Assembly: GCA_035347155.1 (NCBI GenBank) | Contig: DAORET010000006.1 | Location: 64,001 to 105,970, forward strand | Source: Leptospiraceae bacterium | Lineage (GTDB): Bacteria > Spirochaetota > Leptospiria > Leptospirales > Leptospiraceae | DNA: 41,970 nt | Reading direction: 5' to 3' | Shown here: positions 1,553 to 13,940 of the stretch, piece after piece | Numbering within the stretch: the first letter of the stretch is position 1 | Layout of the letters: each line of letters begins with the position of its first letter | The notes under the pieces: generated by a model | What the model was told of the DNA's origin: nothing | Seen by the model: only the letters and a program-made list of their open reading frames with translations | Database searches by the model: none | Program-made: the position numbers and the translations under genes

Positions 1553-2547
1553 TTTCTATATACAAATAAAAAGGAGAGACTAAAGAAAATGCCAAGGAAC
1601 CCAATCACTGCAAATACGGATTTATCCCAAGTAGTAAAAATACTTCCATTTCGAACTTTTGGCGAATTTGTCCTGGGTTCCTCTGGCTCAAAGTTTCCTC
1701 CAGCAACAGAAATTTCTACAGAATTCGTTTCTGAATAAATTGCTCGAATCGCACCTAAACCTTCCGGAATATTTTCTTTTATTTCTTCAGTGGACATACT
1801 TCCTTTTAGTTCCACTTTCATATCTTTCGGTTTATAAAATATAATTCGAGGGGACTTGGGATCTTCAAAATTAAGCTCATCTTTAAAAGAAATATCTCCA
1901 AGAGACTTAGCCGATAGCACAAATGTAATCTGGAGTTCCGACGAACCAGGTAGGATAGAACGGTCTATCATCTTTCCTTTTTTTCCATCTACTAAATTCA
2001 GGGGGATTCCCATTTTTGAATCCCCTTGTGTCAATTGACCAAAGACTTCAGTTGCCTCTGCAGGCACAAAAACTTCCAAAGGATTATTTTTATCCTGAAA
2101 AGATCTTGGTGGATTCGATTTGTTTTCTATTAGAAAAATTTTATAAAGACGAACTAGATTTTCCTCTCTAACAATTTGCAAAAGACTTCGAACTTCAATA
2201 TTCTTCCGATCTGATGTAGTTTCGTAGACAGAAATTTCCTGCACTTTGTTTCTAAAATTTGGAGCGGGTGGAACCATCTTATTATAATTTGCACCTTTGT
2301 AAGAAACTTGGATTAAAATGGGAGAACCGTCTGGAACATTTACTTTTTCCAGAACAAAATTTCCAGACTTATTACTAAATTCACCGACAGGAACCATCCC
2401 TCCCTGTAGTGCAATTAACTTTATACTGTCTGCTTGTCCAACTCCACCCGTGGTTCCATTTTTTAAGCTGATCTTTAGATTCAGCTCTTCTGCGTTGAGT
2501 CCCGTAATAAAAAGAAATAGAAATAAAAATACCAATCGATTGTGCAT
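1549..2547 (-). CDS. Hypothetical exported protein with N-terminal signal peptide and C-terminal hydrophobic anchor
   Basis: N-terminus MHNRLVFLFLFLFITGLNA and C-terminus SVFAVIGFLGIFFSLSFLFVYRK. It is translationally coupled to the downstream C-N hydrolase. No recognisable catalytic motif. Confidence 0.55.
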   Translation of the reverse strand: MHNRLVFLFLFLFITGLNAEELNLKISLKNGTTGGVGQADSIKLIALQGGMVPVGEFSNKSGNFVLEKVNVPDGSPILIQVSYKGANYNKMVPPAPNFRNKVQEISVYETTSDRKNIEVRSLLQIVREENLVRLYKIFLIENKSNPPRSFQDKNNPLEVFVPAEATEVFGQLTQGDSKMGIPLNLVDGKKGKMIDRSILPGSSELQITFVLSAKSLGDISFKDELNFEDPKSPRIIFYKPKDMKVELKGSMSTEEIKENIPEGLGAIRAIYSETNSVEISVAGGNFEPEEPRTNSPKVRNGSIFTTWDKSVFAVIGFLGIFFSLSFLFVYRK

Positions 2548-3097
2548 AGATTCATATTTTTTAATGGAATGATTTGTTAAAGGAAAATATATACTAATTT
2601 GTCAGAACAAATTAAAAACTCTTTTAAATGGCACTTTCTTCTTTTTTATTTAGAATAAAAATGTAGCGATTTACTAAAACCTTCCTTTTGATTCCAACGA
2701 GTACCAAGAAAAACTCCAGACAAATCACTTAGAATCAAATAAAAAAATTCGGTATTTTTTATTGATCACATCTATGAAAACAATTAATACAAAGACAATC
2801 AATTATGAATCTCTTTCATTCCTCTTATTTTAGTAAGACTTCCTTTTTTTTGTTAGATAATGATTTAACTTGCGGCTAACAAAAAGTAGCCACAAAATTA
2901 TAAAAAAATATTTTTTTCTAAAAAAAAGATTTGCTATTTTAAAAAAATAAGTTATATTATAGACAATCGAAGAGAAAGGTCTGAGGGTTCAAGTCGAAGA
3001 GGTAAATGAAATACTCAAGAACGACAAAGCCATAAGGCAATATCCGGTATAAGACATCAATCTTTGGTTGAAAGTTATAACATGAAAGGAGTGTAGT

Positions 3098-3220
3098 TTG
3101 ATCAAGTATTTCCTCACAAGTTTTCTCATTGCCCTTTCAATAGCAAGTGTAAGTCTATCTGCCTGCGATGGAAAAGGCAAATTAGTAGAAGATAAGCCAA
3201 TAGAGGCAACTACTAAATAG
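3098..3220 (+). CDS. Candidate small lipoprotein (40 aa)
   Basis: AAGGAG at 3086-3091 is followed 6 nt later by TTG at 3098. The ORF reads LIKYFLTSFLIALSIASVSLSAC/DGKGKLVEDKPIEATTK* with a lipobox-like LSAC. It lies in a 700-bp AT-rich intergenic region and is below the size cutoff of the ORF track. Confidence 0.3.
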   Translation: MIKYFLTSFLIALSIASVSLSACDGKGKLVEDKPIEATTK

Positions 3221-3259
3221 TTTCACTTGAATAATCATAGAGGTGCAATGCTTCTATGA

Positions 3260-5107
3260 TTATTCCAAGAAATATCTCTCTCGCACATCGTCCTGATTTA
3301 TCTCAAAATAATATTTATAAAAATGTTTATAGTCTTTTTGAATTTGCGCCGGTGAATTCCTATCTATTTCACTAATGTAGCGATCTAAATACGATTCAAA
3401 ATTGACAAACTCAAACTTTCCTGTTTTCTTCAACTCCGAAAAAAGAATCGCATCATAACGAAGGATTCTGAATTCACCTGGAACATTTTTTAAACGAATC
3501 CAATTGTAATCTGTTTTTGGTATTTCATTCGTTGGAAAAAAATGAATGTTTATATTTCTTTTTAGTAAATAGTCTATTGGTGCTGCTTTTTCATGACCAA
3601 CTTTGCCTCTCTCATAAATTGTTTGATGTGCTATAAACTCGTCCGTCAAACCAGTAACCGATTCAATGGCAATTCTAGGATTTAAATAAAAAGCAATCAT
3701 TGCTTGAGATCCACCAAAGGCAATACTTACTTCTAGTTCTTCAAAGATTTTAGTAAAAGGTAAGAGTGATAATTTTAATTCATAGACACTTTTCAATTTA
3801 TAAACATCACTCTCATTTGTGATATTATCAACAATTGGATATTGAGATCCCTTATAAGGATTGTTGTAAAACAGTGTGCAGATAACAACCATTAGACTCA
3901 AAACATTTCGAACTCTTGGAAATTTCATTCTAAATAAAAAGAGTTCTGTTGTAAGATAAAGCAATGGAGTAATTGGAATGAGAAGTCTTGCAAACATAAA
4001 ATCTCCTCCAATTTTTGTAAGATACAATATATACAAAAAAGAAGGAAGGAAAAGCAAAAGAAAAACTCGAATATAAAAATGATCTATTCGACTCTGCCCT
4101 GAGATCATTCTCTTCAAAGAAAATGATGGTTTAATTCGATAGAGATTTCTCTTTCTTAATCTTAATTTTCTACGTCTCATTTTATAGCGACGAGAGAAAA
4201 GAACGAGAGCCAAATAACGCAATTTAGAGCTAACTCTTGTTATACGCAAAAACCAAAAAAGAACTAACAAAAAAGGTAAGACCAAGATATAGTAAGAAGA
4301 GAAATACAAATAGGTATACTTGATTCCTTGCTCTAAATAAGATTCCATTCCAGATTTAGCATAGAATGTATTTGGAAAAAACCAACCGTAATAAGTATAC
4401 CTCCAAAACCAATAGGGTAAGAAAATAAAAAGAAACGGTAGTTGTAATACAAATTGATTGATAAAGTAAGTTCTATATTCCAAATTTCGATACTTAAAAA
4501 GTAAAACATAAAGAGTTGCAAATATATAAAAAAGAGCCCCATCGGGACGAGTCATAATAGATAAAACCAACAGAAAAAGACCTATTAACACATGTAAACC
4601 ACGATCACTTAAAAGAATAAAGACACTTCCTGCTAGTAACAAAAAACCAAAAAAAGTCGTTTCAAGTCCTCCAGTTGCAAAAATTTGTCCATGGGAATGC
4701 AAGGCATATCCAATAAAAGCGACTGGAAAGTAAAAGGATTTAAAATGTTCCCCTGCACGAATTTTAAAAATAGTGTTTCCTGTTTTATACAAAAAGAAAA
4801 GACTAAGGAGATAGAAAAATAAACCCAAGCCAGTTGATACATGAATTGGATCTAGTTGAAAAAACATTCCAACAGAAATAAATAAAGTCCACAGAAAGTT
4901 TGTAAATCCTTCTACAAATTCACCAGCGTTGTAAACTAAACCCAATCCATCATTTAAATTTTTTGCATATCGAAAGGAGATAAATGCATCATCACATACC
5001 CAATGCAAAATATATGCTTTATATAATGCATATATCCCTATCGCTAGGCTAATATAAATAGATACAATCTTTCGGTTAAGGCTGACTGAATATTTTTTAG
5101 AATACAA
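3260..5107 (-). CDS. Polytopic membrane glycosyltransferase, GT-C fold (ArnT/PMT-like)
   Basis: More than 10 predicted TM helices. The first-loop motif HWVCDDAFISFRYAKN resembles the DE/DD-x-RYA loop-1 motif of GT83/GT39 GT-C transferases. There is a basic cytoplasmic loop RRYKMRRRKLRLRKR and a C-terminal soluble domain. Confidence 0.55.
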   Translation of the reverse strand: MYSKKYSVSLNRKIVSIYISLAIGIYALYKAYILHWVCDDAFISFRYAKNLNDGLGLVYNAGEFVEGFTNFLWTLFISVGMFFQLDPIHVSTGLGLFFYLLSLFFLYKTGNTIFKIRAGEHFKSFYFPVAFIGYALHSHGQIFATGGLETTFFGFLLLAGSVFILLSDRGLHVLIGLFLLVLSIMTRPDGALFYIFATLYVLLFKYRNLEYRTYFINQFVLQLPFLFIFLPYWFWRYTYYGWFFPNTFYAKSGMESYLEQGIKYTYLYFSSYYILVLPFLLVLFWFLRITRVSSKLRYLALVLFSRRYKMRRRKLRLRKRNLYRIKPSFSLKRMISGQSRIDHFYIRVFLLLFLPSFLYILYLTKIGGDFMFARLLIPITPLLYLTTELFLFRMKFPRVRNVLSLMVVICTLFYNNPYKGSQYPIVDNITNESDVYKLKSVYELKLSLLPFTKIFEELEVSIAFGGSQAMIAFYLNPRIAIESVTGLTDEFIAHQTIYERGKVGHEKAAPIDYLLKRNINIHFFPTNEIPKTDYNWIRLKNVPGEFRILRYDAILFSELKKTGKFEFVNFESYLDRYISEIDRNSPAQIQKDYKHFYKYYFEINQDDVRERYFLE

Positions 5108-5165: not shown

Positions 5166-6344
5166 ATGAAGAAAAAGATAGCTCTTATATCACCCATTTT
5201 TTCGCCCAATATATCCGGTGGTGCGGAAAGGCATGCGATTAGCTTTGCGGAACTGTTATCAGAAGACTACGATCTAGAAATACTTACAACAAAAGCACTC
5301 GATTATATTACCTGGAAAAATGTAATAAAAGAGGATACGGAAACATTTCATGCAAGCCTTGTGAGAAGATTCAAGGTAAAAGAAACTAGAAATATTAAAT
5401 CTTTCAATCGTTACCATGCAAGGCTAATTCATAAACTTCCAAATATCTCTGAGAAAGAAATGGAAAAATGGATTCAAAAGCAGGGTCCTTATTGTCCTGA
5501 TCTAATTCATTTCATACGAGAAAACCAACATAAATATGATGTGTTTATTTTTATGACTTATCTCTATTATACAACGATATACGGTATGTCTGAAATTAAA
5601 AATAAATCTATTTGTGTCACAACATTGCATGACGAGCCTCCTGCTTACTTTCCTATCTACAAAAAAATTCTCACAAATGAAATCAGTTACTCATTTAATA
5701 CTCCAGAAGAGAGAGATTTATTTGTTAAAATTTTCTCTTACAAACCAAAGCATTACTCCATAATCGGTTTACATGTAGATCAACCTGCTATTGTTCATTT
5801 GCCCAAGCCCAAAGGAAATTATGTAGTTTATATTGGAAGAATTGATGCAGGCAAAGGAATATACACGTTAATTGAAAAGTTTTTGGAATGGAGAAATAAA
5901 TACAATGAAGAGATAGACTTAGTTTTAATTGGAGGGGGTGAACAAGTATTAGCCTCTGAACATGTAAGATTTACAGGCTATATCTCGGAAGAAGAAAAAA
6001 TCAATTATTTAAAGAATGCATTGTTTTTAATCAACCCATCTCATTTAGAAAGTTTCTCCATTGTAGTTATGGAAGCATGGCTTCTTGAAATTCCAGTATT
6101 GGTAAATGCGGAATCGGAAATTTTAAAAGCCCACTGTATTCGAAGCAATGCAGGTTTATACTACTCAGACCAAGAAAACTTTGAGGCTACTTTTAATTAC
6201 CTACTCGATCACCCCGAAACCCGAAAAAAAATGGGCAGGAATGGCAGACTCTATGTGGAAATGAATTATACCAGAGATAAAGTAAAACAAAAATTACTTA
6301 GCTTAGTAGAGAGTATTAAAAAAAGGGACAGTGCAAAAACTTAG
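5166..6344 (+). CDS. Glycosyltransferase family 4 (GT-B, group 1)
   Basis: N-terminus ISPIFSPNISGGAERH, GRIDAGKGI, and the E-x7-E region FSIVVMEAWLLEIPVLVNAESE typical of GT4 retaining transferases. It is divergent from the GT-C gene. Confidence 0.75.
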   Translation: MKKKIALISPIFSPNISGGAERHAISFAELLSEDYDLEILTTKALDYITWKNVIKEDTETFHASLVRRFKVKETRNIKSFNRYHARLIHKLPNISEKEMEKWIQKQGPYCPDLIHFIRENQHKYDVFIFMTYLYYTTIYGMSEIKNKSICVTTLHDEPPAYFPIYKKILTNEISYSFNTPEERDLFVKIFSYKPKHYSIIGLHVDQPAIVHLPKPKGNYVVYIGRIDAGKGIYTLIEKFLEWRNKYNEEIDLVLIGGGEQVLASEHVRFTGYISEEEKINYLKNALFLINPSHLESFSIVVMEAWLLEIPVLVNAESEILKAHCIRSNAGLYYSDQENFEATFNYLLDHPETRKKMGRNGRLYVEMNYTRDKVKQKLLSLVESIKKRDSAKT

Positions 6345-6540
6345 CATTTTTGAAAAAGTATATAAATAACTCACATTTCGCAAAATTTATTATTTGAGAA
6401 GTAAATGATGATTTTAAGATATTAGAGAATGCTAATGAATTAATAAAACCAATAGCCTGCGATAGCTCGGCTGATGGAGAGCTTATAAAGCGATGGATGG
6501 ACAAACCCTCCGTTCCCTCTCTCTCGCACAGCTCAAGCCT

Positions 6541-6628
6541 ATTGTCATTTTTCAATGACAATGGGAGCAAACCTCATTTGAACGCTTGGTTCACCCGAAC
6601 TCAATCATTGCTTTTATGAAGCAATGAT
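6541..6628. other. Two perfect AT-rich hairpins in a locally GC-richer intergenic island (possible structured RNA or atypical bidirectional terminator)
   Basis: attgtcatt-tttc-aatgacaat (6541-6562, 9-bp stem) and atcattgctt-ttatg-aagcaatgat (6604-6628, 10-bp stem). Both lie between convergent genes, with no clean U-tract. Confidence 0.3.
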
Positions 6629-6744
6629 AATAGCTATAGCGTAAGGTGAGTAAATAAATCAAATTTCTCTATAAATCTATAAATCTCTCTCTTTAACTAA
6701 GATTTTGCACAGATCTACTGAAATTCTAATGCATGAGGTATATT

Positions 6745-8418
6745 TCAAAAATGATTCTGAGCAATTCTTCTGACTGCATCTACCAATCTATCAATCTCTT
6801 CCTTGGTATTATAAAAAGAAAGGGAAGGACGAACAGTAGACTCTACACCATATCGTCGAAGAGAAGGTTGTGCGCAATGATGACCAGCACGCACAGCAAT
6901 TCCCTCTAAATCTAAAAGTCTTCCAACTTCAGATGTTTGTTTATTTTGCAATACAAAGGAAAGAACCCCTACTTTATTGGGAGCGGTTCCTATCAAACGT
7001 AAACCTTTTATTTGAGTCAAACCAGCTGTAGCATACTCCAAAAGAGAATGTTCATATTTAGCTATGTTCTCTAGACCTATGCTATTCACATAATCCAAAG
7101 CAGCACCCAAACCTACTGCATCTGCTATATTCGGAGTTCCTGCCTCAAATTTAGCTGGTAAATCACTATAAGTTGTTTCCTCAAAGGTTACATTTTTTAT
7201 CATATTCCCACCACCCTGCCAAGGAGGCATTAACTCTAAAATTTCTTTTCTTCCATAAACAACACCGATCCCAGTAGGACCAAAGATTTTATGTCCAGAG
7301 AAAACAAAGAAATCAGCTTCCAAATCTTGAACGTTAACTGGAATATGTGCGACCGACTGCGCCCCATCGATTAACACTTTTGCTCCATGCCTTTTCGCAA
7401 GTCCTATCATTTCTTTTACAGGTAGAATTGTTCCAAGACTATTTGATGCTTGCGTCAAAGATACAAATTTAGTCCTCGGACCAAGGAGTCTCTCATAATC
7501 TTCTAGAATTACTTCTCCTCTCTCATTCAGTGGAATAACACGAATGATGGCACCCTTCTCCTTTGCTACAATTTGCCAAGGGACAATATTTGCGTGATGC
7601 TCTGCTTGAGATAGAATGATCTCATCCCCTGCTTGAAAATACTTTCTTCCGTATGTTTGAGCGACTAAATTGATCGCCTCCGTTGTTCCTCTAACAAATA
7701 TAATTTCTGATGTGGATGAAGCCTTAATAAAATTCTTTACTTTCTCTCTTGCATCCTCGAATGCATCTGTAGATCGAGCAGCTAACGTGTGCGCTCCTCT
7801 ATGTATATTTGAATTATCATTTGAGTAGTAATGACTGATTGCATCAATCACAATTTTCGGTTTTTGCGTTGTTGCAGCATTGTCAAACCAAGCTAGTGGC
7901 TTTCCATGCACTTTCTGATTTAACACTGGAAAATCTTTCCGAATCTGATTCACATCAAATGGTTGATTGGAATAAATATCTTTTACAAATCTAGAATCAC
8001 TCTGTTTTTGAAAAAAAACACAATTATCCAATCCATTCCAATTTAAATTATGATTCGAGTTTTTACCTTGAATACTTTCGACAAATGATTTCAGGTTATC
8101 ATACTTTCTTTCACCAACAATTTCTGATTGCTGTTTCTTTAAAGTCCCAACGGATTCAGAAATCGTTTTTTGATCCAAATTCAACTTTTCAGAAACAGAC
8201 TCATTTCTATCTGTAATTTCCGAAGTATTTTTTCCAAATACTATCTCTTGGATTTTCTCAAAATCTAAATCTTTTTCTTTTCCAGAAAAAGATTTTTCAG
8301 GCATATATTTATTAGCCGCTACTTTAAAAGAACTCCCCGAAATACTATTTGCTTTCGGAAGTTCATTATAAAGCTTTGAAGCTATTTGCGCAATAAAACT
8401 TGTATCGAATGGTTCCAT
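6745..8418 (-). CDS. Group II cysteine desulfurase (SufS/CsdA-like) with ~170-aa low-complexity N-terminal extension; putative encapsulin cargo
   Basis: PLP lysine context FSGHKIFGPTGIGVVYG and catalytic Cys context RAGHHCAQP. The preferred start is ATG 8416-8418 (MEPFDTSF), preceded by AGGAGA at a 5-nt spacing. The ORF-track start at 8487 is likely too long. The first ~170 residues are S/K/E/N-rich with no fold motifs. Confidence 0.8.
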   Translation of the reverse strand: MEPFDTSFIAQIASKLYNELPKANSISGSSFKVAANKYMPEKSFSGKEKDLDFEKIQEIVFGKNTSEITDRNESVSEKLNLDQKTISESVGTLKKQQSEIVGERKYDNLKSFVESIQGKNSNHNLNWNGLDNCVFFQKQSDSRFVKDIYSNQPFDVNQIRKDFPVLNQKVHGKPLAWFDNAATTQKPKIVIDAISHYYSNDNSNIHRGAHTLAARSTDAFEDAREKVKNFIKASSTSEIIFVRGTTEAINLVAQTYGRKYFQAGDEIILSQAEHHANIVPWQIVAKEKGAIIRVIPLNERGEVILEDYERLLGPRTKFVSLTQASNSLGTILPVKEMIGLAKRHGAKVLIDGAQSVAHIPVNVQDLEADFFVFSGHKIFGPTGIGVVYGRKEILELMPPWQGGGNMIKNVTFEETTYSDLPAKFEAGTPNIADAVGLGAALDYVNSIGLENIAKYEHSLLEYATAGLTQIKGLRLIGTAPNKVGVLSFVLQNKQTSEVGRLLDLEGIAVRAGHHCAQPSLRRYGVESTVRPSLSFYNTKEEIDRLVDAVRRIAQNHF

Positions 8419-8431
8419 AGTATCTCCTAGT

Positions 8432-9871
8432 CTACTTTGGTAGAGAATTTCTATTCTGATAATCGTGATAATATCCGACTTCAACATTCTCTAAAACAGC
8501 TAACGCATCATCCGTTAAGACAACAGCGGATGAGTAGAGTGTTAATAGGTAAGAAGCTACTCCAAGATTATCTAATCCCATGAGTCGTGCGGAGAGACTT
8601 GGAGAAATTTCACCAGGTATTCCAATCTGATGAAGACCAACAACACCCTGCTCTTCCTCTCCCACACGGAGTAATAATATACTTGTAGTTCCAAACCACT
8701 GGTTCGATAAATTCGTATTTTTAACTTCTAGTTTATCACATGGGATAATTGGTATACCACGCCATGTGATAACCGGACTTCCAAATATTTGAGTTGTAAC
8801 TGGTGGAACTCCCCTCCAAGTGCATTCTCTTTCAAACGCAGCAATCGCTTTGGGATGCGCTAGAAAAAAAGCTGGTTTTTTCCAAACCAACGCAAGTAGT
8901 TCATCTAAATCGTCAGGCGTTGGAGCTCCATATCGTGTGCTAATTCTCATAGATGGATCAACAGAATGGAGTAATCCAAATTTTTTACTGTTTATTAGTT
9001 CCCATTCTTGTCTTTCTTTGATTCCTTCAATCGTTAGCCGCATTTGCTCTTCTAATTGATTGTAGGGATTATTATACAAATCAGAAACTCGTGTGTGAAC
9101 TCTAACTACGGTTTGAATTGCATTTAAAGAATATTCTCGGGGTTTATCTGAATAATCAATAAATGTCTCTGGAATTTCAACATTTTCAGCAAAACCAGAT
9201 ACTAAATCAATATTCCTTTCACCATATTTATTTACGGTCGATCTCAATTCAATGTGTTTATCAATCGCCTTTTTAAAATCTTCTTTTAAATTTGGAAACT
9301 CACTTAAAATATCATCTAAATCTTTTCCTGAAAGGGTAAGCAATTTACAAGGAGTGATCGTTCTAACAGTAACGTCAGACGGAATATCAGACACTAATTC
9401 GATTTCTCCGAAATATTCTCCTTCAGTTAGTAGTGCAATTCTCAAATCACTGCCGTGCACTCCTTTACTTAGAACCTCGACTTGCCCTTGTGCTATGATA
9501 AAAAATTTATTTTTATCAACCCCTTCTACTACTAATTTATTTCCTAATGTAACCTCTTCTGTCTTAAAACGATTTGCCATCCGATTTATAATATCATCTT
9601 GGAATTTTGCAAACAGTGGCACTGATCGAAGAGACTGCGGATTGAAAGATACTGCGCCATCCTTGAAATTCAATTCTACTCTTTCTGCCTTTTTTAATTC
9701 TACTTTTGTTCTGTTCACTCTATACGTTCCACCTTCAACATGAACCCATGGAAGAAGACTTAATAGATATCTCGGGGTAATAGACATCATCTGTGGACGA
9801 GTCTTTGTAGTATTCGCAAGGTTTCTTGCTACTGACGTTGTTACGCTTCTTTGTAATATGTTATCTGACAT
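8432..9871 (-). CDS. Family 2B encapsulin-like shell protein, paralog 2 (HK97-like with internal cNMP-binding domain)
   Basis: Size of 479 aa. The internal CAP-type cNMP-binding motif is FIIAQGQVEVLSKGVHGSDLRIALLTEGEYFGEIELVSD...PCKLLTL. It is adjacent to a cysteine desulfurase with an N-terminal extension and to cysE. It is about 75% identical to the upstream paralog. Confidence 0.6.
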   Translation of the reverse strand: MSDNILQRSVTTSVARNLANTTKTRPQMMSITPRYLLSLLPWVHVEGGTYRVNRTKVELKKAERVELNFKDGAVSFNPQSLRSVPLFAKFQDDIINRMANRFKTEEVTLGNKLVVEGVDKNKFFIIAQGQVEVLSKGVHGSDLRIALLTEGEYFGEIELVSDIPSDVTVRTITPCKLLTLSGKDLDDILSEFPNLKEDFKKAIDKHIELRSTVNKYGERNIDLVSGFAENVEIPETFIDYSDKPREYSLNAIQTVVRVHTRVSDLYNNPYNQLEEQMRLTIEGIKERQEWELINSKKFGLLHSVDPSMRISTRYGAPTPDDLDELLALVWKKPAFFLAHPKAIAAFERECTWRGVPPVTTQIFGSPVITWRGIPIIPCDKLEVKNTNLSNQWFGTTSILLLRVGEEEQGVVGLHQIGIPGEISPSLSARLMGLDNLGVASYLLTLYSSAVVLTDDALAVLENVEVGYYHDYQNRNSLPK

Positions 9872-9887
9872 TCTATTCTCCTTTTAT

Positions 9888-11351
9888 TTAAATGCCTAAT
9901 CCATCACTAAAATAGTTTGAATTTTTATTTTGATAGCTATGATAATATCCCACCTCCACATTTTCTAAAACAGCAATAGCATCGTCGGTTAAGACGGCTG
10001 CGGCAGAATATAACGTTAATAGATAGGATGCTACCCCCAAAGGATCTAAACCCATTAATCTAGCAGATAGGCTTGGTAAGATTTCTCCCGGGATTCCAGC
10101 TTGGTGTAATCCAATGACTCCTTGATTTTCTTCCCCAACTCGGACTAATAGAATATTTGTTGTTCCAAGCCAAGGTCTAGAGTAGTAATTACTTTTTACT
10201 TCCAATTTGTCTGAAGGAATAATTGGAATTCCTCGCCATAGTATCAGAGGTGCACCGAAAGAATTCTCTGTCACAGGAGGGACTCCTCTCCAAGTGCATT
10301 CCCTTTCAAATGCAGCAATCGCTTTAGGATGAGCCAAAAAGAATGAGGGTCTTTTCCAAACCAAGGCAAGTAACTCATCTAAATCATCAGGAGTTGGAGC
10401 TCCATAACGTGTGCTAATTCTAAAAGCTGGTGATACCGAATGGAGTAATCCAAATTTTTTATTATTTATCAATTCCCACTCTTGTCTTTCTTTGATTCCT
10501 TCAATCGTTAGCCGCATTTGCTCTTCTAATTGATTATAGGGGTTATTGTATAAATCAGAAACTCGTGTGTGAACTCGAACTACTGTCTGGATTGCATTTA
10601 AAGAATATTCTCTCGGAGATTCTGAGTAATCAATGAAAGTCTCTGGAATTTCAACATTTTCAGCAAAACCAGACACAAAATCGATATTTCTTTCGCCGTA
10701 TTTATTCACAGTGGAGAGCAATTCAATATAATCATCAATAGCTTTTCTAAAATCATTTCTCAAATTTGGAAACTCATTTAGAATTTGCTCTAAGTCTGCT
10801 CCGTATAACGTCAATAATTTACAAGGAGTTGTTGTCTTTACTGTGACATCTGAGGGCTTATCCGAAAGCAGACCCTGTTCTCCAAAATATTCACCTTCTG
10901 TGAGAAGTGCGATTCTCAGATCACTCCCATGAACACCCTTGCTAAATACTTCAACCTGACCTTGGGCTATAATAAAGAATTTATTCTTATCCTCACCTTC
11001 AACAACAAGAGTCGTTCCTAAACTAACTTCCTCCGTTTTAAATTGATTCGAAATTCGCGTGAGTATATCTAATGGAAGTTTCGAAAAAACAGGAACCGTT
11101 CGAAGCGCTTCTGGATTAAATGATAAAAAAACAAATCCATCTACAATATTTAATTCAATTCGTTCTGCTCTTTTTAACTCAACCCTGGTCCTATTGACTC
11201 GGTAAGTTCCACCTTCTACTTGCACCCAAGGGATAACACTAAGTAACCACCTTGGGGTTATTGACATCATCTGTGGATGTGTCTTTGTTGTATTGGTCAA
11301 ATTTTTAGCCACTGATGTTGTCACACTACGCTGCAAAATATTATCTGACAT
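9888..11351 (-). CDS. Family 2B encapsulin-like shell protein, paralog 1 (HK97-like with internal cNMP-binding domain)
   Basis: Size of 487 aa with the same architecture and cNMP motif (GEYFGEQGLLSD...PCKLLTL). The N-terminus MSDNILQRSVTTSVAKNL is shared with paralog 2. Confidence 0.6.
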   Translation of the reverse strand: MSDNILQRSVTTSVAKNLTNTTKTHPQMMSITPRWLLSVIPWVQVEGGTYRVNRTRVELKRAERIELNIVDGFVFLSFNPEALRTVPVFSKLPLDILTRISNQFKTEEVSLGTTLVVEGEDKNKFFIIAQGQVEVFSKGVHGSDLRIALLTEGEYFGEQGLLSDKPSDVTVKTTTPCKLLTLYGADLEQILNEFPNLRNDFRKAIDDYIELLSTVNKYGERNIDFVSGFAENVEIPETFIDYSESPREYSLNAIQTVVRVHTRVSDLYNNPYNQLEEQMRLTIEGIKERQEWELINNKKFGLLHSVSPAFRISTRYGAPTPDDLDELLALVWKRPSFFLAHPKAIAAFERECTWRGVPPVTENSFGAPLILWRGIPIIPSDKLEVKSNYYSRPWLGTTNILLVRVGEENQGVIGLHQAGIPGEILPSLSARLMGLDPLGVASYLLTLYSAAAVLTDDAIAVLENVEVGYYHSYQNKNSNYFSDGLGI

Positions 11352-11384
11352 ATTCTAAACTCCTTACTATCATATTCTATTATT

Positions 11385-12293
11385 CTATATACCTGATCCA
11401 AAATAAAAATGCTCTTGTATTACTTTCGCCTGCGTAATTTTAGAGTTAGGCGGAATATCTGTAGTAATCCAAACATTTCCTCCAATGGTTGAATTCTTAC
11501 CAATAGTGATCCGCCCCAAAATATTTGCGTTAGAATAGATAACTACATTATCTTCAATAATTGGATGCCTTGGCTCATTTTTTATTGGATTTCCAGATTC
11601 ATCTAATGAAAACTTTTTTGCTCCGAGCGTAACTCCCTGATAAAGCCGAACGTTATTTCCTATAATCGCAGTTTCTCCAATTACAACGCCGGTTCCATGA
11701 TCAATACAAAAATTTTCTCCTATAACCGCACCTGGATGAATGTCAATGCCAGTCTCTGAATGCGCAAGTTCAGAAATAATTCTAGGCAATAAGGGGATAT
11801 TTAATTTTAAAAGTTCATGAGCAATTCGATGATTCATCATTGCTCTTATCGTAGGGTAACAAAAAATTATTTCAGCAATGTTCTTCGCGGCCGGGTCAGC
11901 ATCATACATTGCTTTTGCATCTGTAAATAATAACCGACGAATTCTTGGTAGTGATTCAATAAATTTTAACGTCAGTCGTTCGCTCTTTTCCCGTATATTA
12001 TCATCTAAAGCGTGAAAATCAAACCAAAGGCCATTGTGTATTTGCTGAGAAAGCATTTCATATAATTTCTCTAGATTACCAACTGTTGAATACGCAACCA
12101 TTGCAGAGTTGGTATTATTCTTCCCAAAGTATCCGGGAAATATTATGGTTCTAAGTAATTCGATGATTTCCTTTAAGTTTTCTATCGATGGGAGAGTTTT
12201 ATTCTTTGGTATAAAATTTATCGCAGCATCTTCAGCCTTCAATAAATCACTCGTCGTCTTTTCCAAAGCAGAGCCAATATCAATTTGCCGCAT
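11385..12293 (-). CDS. cysE: Serine O-acetyltransferase
   Basis: The left-handed beta-helix hexapeptide block GIDIHPGAVIGENFCIDHGTGVVIGETAIIGNNVRLYQGVTLG closely matches the CysE core. It is the first gene of the minus-strand operon. Confidence 0.85.
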   Translation of the reverse strand: MRQIDIGSALEKTTSDLLKAEDAAINFIPKNKTLPSIENLKEIIELLRTIIFPGYFGKNNTNSAMVAYSTVGNLEKLYEMLSQQIHNGLWFDFHALDDNIREKSERLTLKFIESLPRIRRLLFTDAKAMYDADPAAKNIAEIIFCYPTIRAMMNHRIAHELLKLNIPLLPRIISELAHSETGIDIHPGAVIGENFCIDHGTGVVIGETAIIGNNVRLYQGVTLGAKKFSLDESGNPIKNEPRHPIIEDNVVIYSNANILGRITIGKNSTIGGNVWITTDIPPNSKITQAKVIQEHFYFGSGI

Positions 12294-12458
12294 AAATTCC
12301 TCCCTATTTTATTCAATATAATGAAGTATATTAAATATATTAAAGCATTTAAGATAATATAACAGATGTATAATATAATATACTAGATATATATTCAATA
12401 TATTAGTCAATTAAAAAAATAAAAATAAATGAGATCCTAGAGCAGCAAGCAAAGCTTC

Positions 12459-12476
12459 TTCCATTTTGAAATGGAA
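12459..12476. promoter_or_regulatory. Palindromic candidate operator TTCCATTT-TG-AAATGGAA in a divergent promoter region
   Basis: 8-bp perfect inverted arms sit in the 386-bp AT-rich gap between the cysE-shell operon and the divergent ACT-domain gene. Confidence 0.3.
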
Positions 12477-12679
12477 ATGCATTATTCGGAAATAGCTAAG
12501 ATTTTTAAAATCATAGGAAGATTAGTCTGCAATTTGTGGATTAAAATCAAAGGAATGAGATTAAGAAATTATCTAAAACACTATGAAAAAAATCTTATAC
12601 AAAAAGCCCTTTCTTTTCGTTGGATTGTTAAACGAATTTCTAATTGATAATATTTGAATCAAATAAATACTAACTAGCG

Positions 12680-13285
12680 ATGATTGACTTTCATTTCAAA
12701 ACTTTAGATGATGAAATACTAGTTACCTTAAAAACAGATGTCACTGAAATTGGAACCTTTCATAGAATGGCTTCCGTTATTTTTTTTCTAGGCTGGGATA
12801 TTTTATCCGGAGAAATCTTAACTATCAATGAGAACGGAACTGATTTTGCAATCGACACCCTAAGATTAAAAGCAGATGGAAATCCAGGCTCCAAAAAAGC
12901 AGTGGAGATCGGGATCATGATGGATGCCATTTTTTCTAAAAGAAAAGGCCTAGATGAACTCTTTCAAAACTATGAAGCGAGAACTCCCAATATTCGAAAT
13001 TTTTTTAGAGAAAGAGCAGAGCTTATTTTTCAAGATGAAATAGAAAAACAACAAACTTGTTTTTATATAGAAGCAGATTCAGGTAGAGGTCTGCTTTATC
13101 ATGTCACAAAGGTCTTACTAGAAAACAAAATCAACATTCTATCAGGTCTCATAGAAACAGACGAAATTACGCAAAGAGCAAAAGATACATTTTATTTAGT
13201 TGATCATGAAGGAAAAATGTTTGGAGGAACTCAGAAAGCAGAGGAAATACGCAGCCAAATATTAAAACCTCTCTTTAATCAGTAA
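12680..13285 (+). CDS. ACT-domain pair protein (small-molecule-binding regulatory protein)
   Basis: Two beta-alpha-beta-beta-alpha-beta-like segments (ILVTLKTDVTEIGTFHRMASVIFFLGWDI and CFYIEADSGRGLLYHVTKVLLENKINI) resemble tandem ACT domains. It is divergent from the cysE operon. Confidence 0.45.
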   Translation: MIDFHFKTLDDEILVTLKTDVTEIGTFHRMASVIFFLGWDILSGEILTINENGTDFAIDTLRLKADGNPGSKKAVEIGIMMDAIFSKRKGLDELFQNYEARTPNIRNFFRERAELIFQDEIEKQQTCFYIEADSGRGLLYHVTKVLLENKINILSGLIETDEITQRAKDTFYLVDHEGKMFGGTQKAEEIRSQILKPLFNQ

Positions 13286-13373: not shown

Positions 13374-13940
13374 TTAAATAAACTTATCAGAGTTTAGTGC
13401 AGTCTCAATTATTTCTGCGATATCTGCATAGCCGGATCTTTTAGCAAGATCTAAGGCAGTGTTTCCATCCTCATCTTCTAGGTGCAACGCTGCTCCTTTT
13501 TCGATTAAGATTTTAGCTGCATCAAATCTACCATGTGTAGCTGCATAATGAAGAGGTGTAAATCCAAAAGTATTTTGTTTGTTTAAAGTAGCTCCATTTT
13601 CAACAAGAAGCTTTACCACTTCTGTTTTACCGTGATGGGCAGCATAATGGAGCGGAGTGTATTCAAAATCGCTTTGAGCATTCACTTCTGCCCCACTCTC
13701 AATTAAGACTTTCGCAATATCCACCCCACTTTGATTGGCAGCATAGTGAAGCGGTGTATATCCGAAATTGCTTTTAGAATTTAGTTCAGCACCCCTTTCG
13801 ATAAGCGATATGACTAATTCAACATGACCCCGACTCGCTGCCATATGAAGAGGAGTTTGACCATCTTCATTCTTTCCGTGTACGTTTAATATGCTCTCAA
13901 AATCTACTTTTTCTTTTTGTTCTAGTAACTCTCTATTCAT
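13374..13940 (-). CDS. Ankyrin-repeat protein (5 repeats)
   Basis: Repeated TPLH-x-AA-x-GH...LL..GA..N motifs (GQTPLHMAASRGHVELV, GYTPLHYAANQSG, EYTPLHYAAHHGK, GFTPLHYAATHGR). Confidence 0.85.
   Translation of the reverse strand: MNRELLEQKEKVDFESILNVHGKNEDGQTPLHMAASRGHVELVISLIERGAELNSKSNFGYTPLHYAANQSGVDIAKVLIESGAEVNAQSDFEYTPLHYAAHHGKTEVVKLLVENGATLNKQNTFGFTPLHYAATHGRFDAAKILIEKGAALHLEDEDGNTALDLAKRSGYADIAEIIETALNSDKFI

Follow-up and report, generated by a model that had tools for sequence, protein, structure and literature searches.

A 41,970 bp stretch of DNA from a Leptospiraceae bacterium (contig DAORET010000006.1 of assembly GCA_035347155.1; hereafter 'the window') carries, in an operon that also encodes a cysteine desulfurase, two adjacent genes for Family 2B encapsulin shell proteins, which are likely to be old tandem paralogues between which gene conversion has recurred. 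Following the naming of Dutcher et al. 2025, the upstream gene is termed Enc1 (suffix _B, hence WIN_B in the window) and the downstream gene Enc2 (suffix _A, WIN_A). The system itself is already annotated and of a known type, namely two-component Family 2B encapsulins of the cysteine desulfurase class; what is new is the recurrent sequence exchange between two encapsulin shell genes, a modest evolutionary novelty, given that duplicated genes in bacteria are well known to undergo gene conversion. No link between encapsulins and either gene conversion or concerted evolution was found in PMC12407261 or in the literature searched. An earlier reading made from the letters of the window alone (the 'sequence-only reading') had proposed that the pair is kept similar by gene conversion, an observation that proves to be largely real: exchange between the paralogues is borne out by a mosaic of synonymous identity assessed against orthologue controls, by conflict between trees, by tracts in related genomes and by a before-and-after pair of strains. 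Some accompanying details required revision, as the two proteins are 82% identical (394/479 residues) rather than approximately 75%, with 74% being the nucleotide identity, and the near-identity described for the 5' ends is a property of the proteins, the first 15 amino acids of which are the same, but not of the DNA, in which 34 of 45 nt match, no better than the average for the gene.

Relatives of the locus were gathered through protein searches and exact-protein look-ups, which provided both Leptospiraceae-like loci (L085/86, L087, L088, L090 and L092) and more distant ones (L093 and L095). In all seven, a longer shell gene lies upstream, a gene for a 479 aa protein downstream, and the desulfurase follows. 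A pattern search of genome contigs (MSDNILQR, TTKT[RH]PQM) returned three further relatives at 77-78% identity, from high-GC metagenome-assembled genomes (MAGs) of Planctomycetota, as well as distant Actinobacteria, all of which were unusable for DNA-level tests. Within the close clade, protein identity is 94-98% between Enc2 proteins, 86-94% between Enc1 proteins and 82-86% between Enc1 and Enc2.

Aligning the two window genes at the DNA level, as the sequence-only reading had suggested, reveals a mosaic of identity. At residues common to both proteins, identical codons make up a fraction of approximately 0.4 over most of the gene and of 0.65-0.87 in its middle. An unbiased search places the best segment at Enc2 codons 185-351, within which 103 of 146 codons are identical, compared with 86 of 237 outside it (permutation P <= 0.001). 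Relative to the number expected from codon usage, there are 94 identical codons against 102.6 outside the segment and 106 against 66 inside. The proportion of synonymous differences (pS) between the window paralogues is correspondingly 0.83 outside the segment and 0.48 inside, with orthologue values of 0.69-0.71 in the tract. The odds ratio of tract against outside is 3.8 for the paralogue pair (P = 1e-8), as opposed to approximately 1.1-1.7 for orthologue pairs; as synonymous identity is therefore clustered between the paralogues and this contrast is absent from orthologues, general synonymous constraint does not explain the segment. This elevation over approximately 500 nt is a stronger signal than the exact run of identity at its centre, from which the sequence-only reading had started. 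That run does exist at the place described, although it is 56 nt rather than 55 nt long, and it exceeds chance expectation whether codon columns are permuted (P <= 0.0002) or synonymous matches alone (P ~ 0.002). At the protein level, by contrast, the identity of the tract region is explained by purifying selection alone (dN/dS being 0.01-0.05), and the high DNA identity of the conserved core would favour further recombination.

Phylogenies of the tract and of its flanks disagree. In neighbour-joining trees with 500 bootstraps, for which the tract was defined as alignment columns 211-345, WIN_A and WIN_B are sisters in 95% of replicates inside the tract, as are the two L090 copies in 98%. Outside the tract the window copies are sisters in 0% of replicates, and the Enc1 genes of five genomes form a clade that includes no Enc2 copies (96-100%). 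Such conflict is a classical sign of gene conversion. The fraction of codons shared by the window Enc1 and L088_A, the Enc2 of a relative, is 0.62 in the tract and 0.40 outside (P = 9e-5), which suggests that the transfer in the window most likely ran from Enc2 into Enc1.

Shared tracts recur in the relatives, at different positions. The longest exact runs between paralogues are 326 nt in L090, 126 nt in L097, 80 nt in L095, 65 nt in L092 (at the 5' end), 52 nt in L087 (near the 3' end) and 44 nt in L088. A metagenome scan added 80 further loci; across 26 complete pairs, protein identity ranges from 77 to 95% and the longest exact runs from 21 to 1047 nt, in scattered positions. The most direct view of an event comes from L097 and L090, near-identical strains in which Enc2 differs by 11 nt and Enc1 by 61 nt. 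Enc1 nt 880-1015 contain 28 differing sites, at all of which L090_B has the Enc2 base; L097_B in most cases retains the Enc1-type base found in L085_B. These strains provide a before-and-after view of Enc2-to-Enc1 conversion, such that independent events in relatives include both a converted and an unconverted example.

Three further observations were made among these pairs. In L097 and L090, a second cluster of 33 differing sites lies at Enc1 nt 312-750, where many L090 bases are unlike those of either L097 or L085, and this cluster may represent an import from another strain. A high-GC metagenome contig (L137:1047-3968) carries a pair with a 1047 nt identical block (Enc2 nt 366-1412) preceded by sequence of 74% identity, for which the alternatives are a recent conversion of very large extent and an effect of assembly. 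The Enc1 gene of L092 (L092:4314-5822; 502 aa) has extra insertions, SIDL near residue 70 and the 12-residue RWLGSGNIHSSS in the A-domain loop region, and over its first ~60 codons it shares 80-93% of codons with its own Enc2.

Several points weigh against gene conversion in the form proposed here. Over the 57 nt spanning the exact run, the orthologues of related genomes depart from the window sequence by just 3-9 nt, and orthologue pairs have a weak peak of synonymous identity of their own at codons 262-303; local codon constraint thus contributes to the run, which overstates the case if taken alone and was rejected as proof of conversion by itself. The tract as a whole still differs at ~15% of nucleotides, so the event was not recent or else several patches make up the tract. 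Modest differences underlie the assigned direction of transfer, and the tract boundaries used in the bootstrap analysis were picked after inspection of the profile, while the segmentation and run tests are unbiased. All of the sequences are metagenome assemblies, in which very long identical blocks such as that of L137 could be influenced by assembly. Finally, duplication might have occurred repeatedly and independently in distant lineages, in place of one old duplication with conversion, although the two tail types described below and the order of the genes would then need to be re-created each time.

The exact run is also where parallel constraint on synonymous sites, with no exchange of DNA, has its best footing. 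An mRNA element, or biased codon choice in a peptide that is invariant and highly expressed, would maintain identity in both copies, and the peptide encoded by the run is indeed composed largely of N, Q, E, K, M and I, the codons for which are used with an AT bias, in addition to the similarity of the clade orthologues in this region. To allow for the abundance of two-fold, AT-biased codons in this invariant peptide, a null based on the codon usage of the clade was constructed, and this rejects the run of 18 identical codons both when synonymous sites are treated as saturated (P = 5e-5) and when a uniform excess of identity is allowed (P = 3.5e-4). Furthermore, orthologues lack the contrast over the 135-167 codon segment, the positions of tracts differ among genomes, and the tract tree pairs the two window copies, by which constraint is largely refuted as the source of the long segment and improbable as an account of the whole. 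It is still harder to sustain a recent duplication with fast-diverging ends, of which the central identity would be a leftover; this would agree with the copies within a genome often being mutual closest relatives against distant lineages, but synonymous sites outside the tract are at the codon-usage floor, Enc1 and Enc2 orthologues with the same order, length and tail exist in at least 26 genomes, the Enc1 genes of five genomes are monophyletic outside the tract, and the dN/dS values imply that there was no burst of relaxed evolution. Hardly credible, too, is a collapse or chimera of the paralogues during assembly, the first of which the sequence-only reading had named as grounds for abandoning its proposal. 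The metagenomic origin of the data, a low-coverage hybrid contig described below and the L137 block, which exceeds the length of short reads, speak in favour of such an artefact. The window locus, however, differs by 0-1 nt across four independent assemblies (from NCBI and ENA), making an assembly artefact very unlikely; its identity is patchy, with runs of no more than 56 nt, shorter than a read, and the loci of the relatives are reproduced in independent assemblies to within 1-7 nt.

In the reading by recurrent gene conversion, Enc1 and Enc2 are old paralogues; they are saturated at synonymous sites over most of their length, and each has orthologues in relatives. As the genes are tandem direct repeats, RecA-type homologous recombination would occasionally copy a stretch one-way between them. 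In the window lineage, this would have happened over approximately Enc2 codons 185-351, most likely from Enc2 to Enc1, and later than the divergence from the closest relatives sampled. The 56 nt run would then be the longest remnant yet to acquire a mutation, its preservation assisted by the low-degeneracy, AT-biased codons of an invariant peptide. The same process is proposed to recur across the desulfurase-associated clade, leaving the C-terminal tail and a few loops copy-specific. A precedent is found in tufA and tufB of Salmonella and Escherichia, old paralogues partly homogenised by RecA-dependent non-reciprocal exchange, in which mosaic tracts occur and a gene resembles the paralogue in its own genome more than it does its orthologues. 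The window copies differ from these in being arranged in tandem, 1474 nt apart, so that unequal crossover could also produce a hybrid gene; in encoding products that are presumed to co-assemble in one shell; and in being only partially homogenised, such that copy-specific loops and tails remain.

Recurrent conversion would make the copies within a genome more alike than their counterparts in distant genomes, the pattern termed concerted evolution. Identity within the genome is 91% in L093 and 95% in L095, while Enc2 proteins of different lineages are just 77-79% identical to one another. For nearly every one of the 26 complete pairs, just 0-6 of 63 Enc1 copies from elsewhere come as close as the partner or closer, and among the top homologues 19 of 41 long-tail proteins have a short-tail protein as their nearest neighbour. 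Given this repeated exchange, the history of the genes cannot be deduced from trees of these shell proteins.

What escapes homogenisation is chiefly the C-terminus. Enc1 proteins have a tail of the pattern ...N-[Y/F]-F-x-[D/E]-G-[L/S]-G-I, whereas the 479 aa Enc2 ends in a short, basic tail with a terminal K, and in an alignment covering eight genomes no columns other than those of the tail distinguish every Enc1 from every Enc2 sequence. This dichotomy persists in 120 homologues and the 80 metagenome loci, and the tail is the only universal difference between copies in the 26 pairs. It follows the sequence VEVGYYH; the solved shells of Streptomyces lydicus and S. griseus end at the preceding VEVG and have no equivalent of the tail. 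In every two-gene locus with both tails readable, including 26 of 26 complete pairs, the long-tail gene is upstream of the 479 aa gene. In a Pirellulaceae MAG (L003:207-1661), the long-tail gene seems to be the last shell gene before a desulfurase match (2416-3606), and with just 207 nt of sequence upstream the arrangement would fit an inverted order as well as a single-gene state. Beyond the tail, 21 non-redundant pairs differ most at Enc2 residues 61-75, 91-105, 181-210 and 361-405 and least at residues 211-360, and the window tract falls within the most protein-conserved part of the gene. The tail, the luminal loop of the A-domain and the N-terminal portion of the inserted domain resist homogenisation and, as such, are candidate sites of functional difference between the subunits, and experiments in which tails or loops are swapped become well defined.

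The sequence-only reading had also described the pair as a hotspot for recombinational deletion to a single hybrid gene and had proposed a survey of one-gene and two-gene states. Such a survey found 33 loci with two genes, 21 with a single long-tail gene (having at least 1550 nt of sequence on both sides) and four with a single short-tail gene. The long-tail singles include L099, L111, L114, L123, L125 and 16 others; the short-tail singles are L119, L147, L170 and L171. As unequal crossover of tandem copies yields a short-tail hybrid only, the long-tail singles would be ancestral or would have lost Enc2 by other means. One candidate hybrid was identified, P0008 (481 aa; L096:120-1565), in which nt 1-692 are those of L088 Enc1 and nt 649 to the end those of L088 Enc2, placing the crossover within the 44 nt run shared by the L088 genes (L088:4521-7440); its flanks also match those of L088. 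It is situated on a contig of 1606 nt at 1.77x coverage (ENA ERZ22158310 NODE_36858) and is either a genuine deletion by unequal crossover or a chimera assembled from sparse reads, both of which predict the same sequence; it was therefore rejected as proof of recombinational deletion. Tandem copies with exact shared runs are prone both to deletion and to assembly chimeras, and single 'hybrid' shell genes in metagenomes should thus be treated cautiously.

Each shell protein contains an inserted domain of the cyclic nucleotide monophosphate (cNMP)-binding fold, and the difference between the copies in this region, for which the sequence-only reading quoted the peptides GEYFGEIELVSD and GEYFGEQGLLSD correctly, had been taken to suggest that the subunits differ in nucleotide sensing. 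This is not supported. At the position where canonical domains have P-R-[S/T] in the phosphate-binding cassette, both copies read P-S-D, with Ser165 aligned to a Trp that, in S. lydicus Enc1, takes the place of the phosphate-binding Arg. The conserved Arg that marks a ligand-competent cNMP domain is hence missing from both, and the S. griseus Family 2B domain, likewise lacking it, does not bind cAMP (PMC11550324). The cassettes of Enc1 and Enc2 do differ (xG/QG versus IE, and K versus I), a distinction that is conserved in five genomes of the Leptospiraceae clade and absent from L092, L093 and L095. The residues of the pocket do vary between copies, but differential cyclic-nucleotide sensing was rejected on the grounds that the key Arg is absent from both.

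The presence of two shell genes in Family 2B operons was noted in 2021, when Andreas and Giessen could not exclude the separate assembly of the two proteins, and a two-component shell is the published view of such operons (PMC8346489). Mixed shells of S. lydicus Enc1 and Enc2 have since been demonstrated and found to be preferred, while Enc1 alone forms no shell (PMC12407261; Dutcher, Andreas and Giessen 2025; PDB 9bje, 9bix); the cysteine desulfurase type is the rarest of the five two-component operon types distinguished there. The window resembles the S. lydicus system in having two adjacent shell genes with an HK97-fold and a cNMP-binding-fold insertion, the pair being within 10 kb (16 nt apart) and conserved in order. 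It differs in host, S. lydicus belonging to the Actinobacteria and the window to the phylum Spirochaetota; in its cysteine desulfurase cargo; in the C-terminal extension that alone discriminates universally between Enc1 and Enc2 in the window clade and is absent from the S. lydicus proteins; and in its mode of evolution, as Enc1 and Enc2 are published as having separate histories at ~60% identity (PMC12407261), whereas the window clade exhibits concerted evolution. Of two motifs diagnostic for Enc1 and Enc2, that at the A-domain edge is LVWK in both window proteins, whereas that in the luminal A-domain loop distinguishes them (VTTQIFGSPVIT versus VTENSFGAPLIL); the latter region is the least identical window of the core (nucleotide identity 0.59) and lies within the residues 361-405 at which the 21 pairs recurrently differ. 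Family 2A SrpI of Synechococcus elongatus (PDB 6x8m), with its Acinetobacter and Mycobacterium homologues, shares the HK97 core (E = 3.6e-109 to 6x8m), the cysteine desulfurase class of cargo, which is loaded by a disordered N-terminal domain in Family 2 and would be so in the window, and a serine O-acetyltransferase accessory, but has a single shell gene without the cNMP-fold insertion, in contrast to the two genes with the insertion in the window.

By analogy with S. lydicus, it is plausible that Enc1 and Enc2 of the window form a two-component mixed shell. In the alternative, the two proteins assemble separately, or one is an accessory that does not assemble, and conversion arises neutrally from the homology of tandem genes; this seems unlikely, although it would be compatible with the reservation expressed in 2021, with the failure of S. 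lydicus Enc1 to form a shell alone and with the positions of the tracts, which look opportunistic and not aimed at interfaces. A shared particle is better matched by the preference of the S. lydicus proteins for mixed shells, by the window genes sharing an operon in which 16 nt separate them and each has a ribosome-binding site, and by an HK97 core that is 93-100% identical between copies. The proposal in the sequence-only reading that assembly interfaces are homogenised goes too far, given that tract positions vary by genome and purifying selection accounts for the protein identity of the window tract. A selected role for homogenisation, in which conversion keeps the shell cores of Enc1 and Enc2 interchangeable while the tail and a few loops carry subunit identity, is doubtful. 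Were it to hold, the tail would be a functional switch, governing for instance vertex placement, cargo stoichiometry or an external partner, and a tail swap should turn one subunit type into the other.

Table 1. Coordinates of the shell genes, their sequence features and the neighbouring operon genes in the window
Feature	Position	Strand	Details
Exact 56 nt run, Enc2 copy	9006..9061	-	Codons 271-289, peptide NQLEEQMRLTIEGIKERQ
Exact 56 nt run, Enc1 copy	10480..10535	-	
Putative gene-conversion segment, Enc2 copy	8819..9319	-	Codons 185-351; tree core 8855-9259
Putative gene-conversion segment, Enc1 copy, probable recipient	10293..10793	-	Offset +1474
Enc2 C-terminal tail	8435..8473	-	Short, basic, ...NSLPK (YYHDYQNRNSLPK)
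Enc1 C-terminal tail	9891..9947	-	Long, ...NYFSDGLGI (YYHSYQNKNSNYFSDGLGI)
Enc2 segment matching the phosphate-binding cassette	9374..9421	-	GEYFGEIELVSDIPSD
Enc1 segment matching the phosphate-binding cassette	10848..10895	-	GEYFGEQGLLSDKPSD
Enc1, Family 2B encapsulin shell protein, upstream copy	9888..11351	-	487 aa
Enc2, Family 2B encapsulin shell protein, downstream copy	8432..9871	-	479 aa
Serine O-acetyltransferase-like gene (hexapeptide repeat; cysE)	11385..12293	-	First operon gene; Pfam Hexapep E = 1.7e-12
Cysteine desulfurase (class-V aminotransferase), putative cargo	6745..8418	-	557 aa; Pfam Aminotran_5 E = 9e-149

The identity of the shell genes is supported by their domains, by structural matches and by existing annotation (Table 1). 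Both match the Pfam family SrpI-like PF19307 (Enc1, E = 8.5e-110; Enc2, E = 2.3e-115) and cNMP_binding PF00027 (E = 1.5e-16 and 3.4e-14, respectively), with cNMP_binding spanning residues ~108-193 of each protein and the SrpI-like match following at 210-466. Such an insertion of the cNMP-binding fold ahead of the main HK97 core, in the E-loop, is the domain arrangement that characterises Family 2B encapsulin shells. They align over their full length to the solved Family 2B shells 9bje, 9bhu and 9bix; the best PDB match of Enc2 is 9bje, S. lydicus Enc1 (E = 1.7e-118, aligned end to end), and the closest solved structures are the Family 2B shells of S. lydicus and S. griseus, together with Family 2A SrpI. 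A protein identical to Enc2 is annotated at NCBI as 'family 2B encapsulin nanocompartment shell protein [Leptospiraceae bacterium]' in assembly GCA_035332705.1. The Enc1 ATG is preceded by AAGGAG at 8 nt, and Enc1 orthologues in at least five genomes have a dN/dS below 0.1.

The operon runs cysE-enc1-enc2-cysteine desulfurase, and its short spacers of 33, 16 and 13 nt, together with a Shine-Dalgarno-like motif at each, indicate a single transcriptional unit. The serine O-acetyltransferase-like gene is also upstream of the shell pair in the Leptospiraceae relatives, in keeping with this enzyme being an enriched accessory of cysteine desulfurase encapsulin operons (PMC8346489). Gene callers place the start of the desulfurase at the ATG at 8418, 13 nt past the Enc2 stop codon and behind AGGAG; the maximal open reading frame (ORF), 6745-8487, would encode 580 aa and overlap the end of Enc2 by 56 nt. 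Aminotran_5 begins at residue 200 of the 580 aa ORF, approximately residue 177 of the 557 aa protein, leaving an N-terminal extension of ~177 aa in which there is no Pfam domain. The protein begins MEPFDTSFIAQIASKLYNELP, which appears to resemble the conserved loading motif of encapsulated desulfurases. With this long unannotated region adjoining the shell genes, the desulfurase is the presumed cargo; Family 2 cysteine desulfurases are loaded through disordered N-terminal domains (PMC8346489).

The G+C content of the window is 33.6%, and a scan of positions 6300-12800 for promoters and terminators yielded counts at the level of shuffled sequence (29 versus 24, and 3 versus 3.9). Promoter-like hexamers were nevertheless observed at homologous sites in both shell genes, on the minus strand just upstream of the 56 nt run (9071-9099 and 10545-10573), reading TTCACA-17-TATAAT and TTCACA-17-TACAAT, in a scan that as a whole is at chance level for AT-rich DNA. 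Just upstream of the operon is a 201 aa ORF (12680-13285, plus strand) with no Pfam match, beside which is an ORF on the minus strand (13374-13940) with repeats that look ankyrin-like by eye; both genes occupy the same position in independent assemblies of the same strain.

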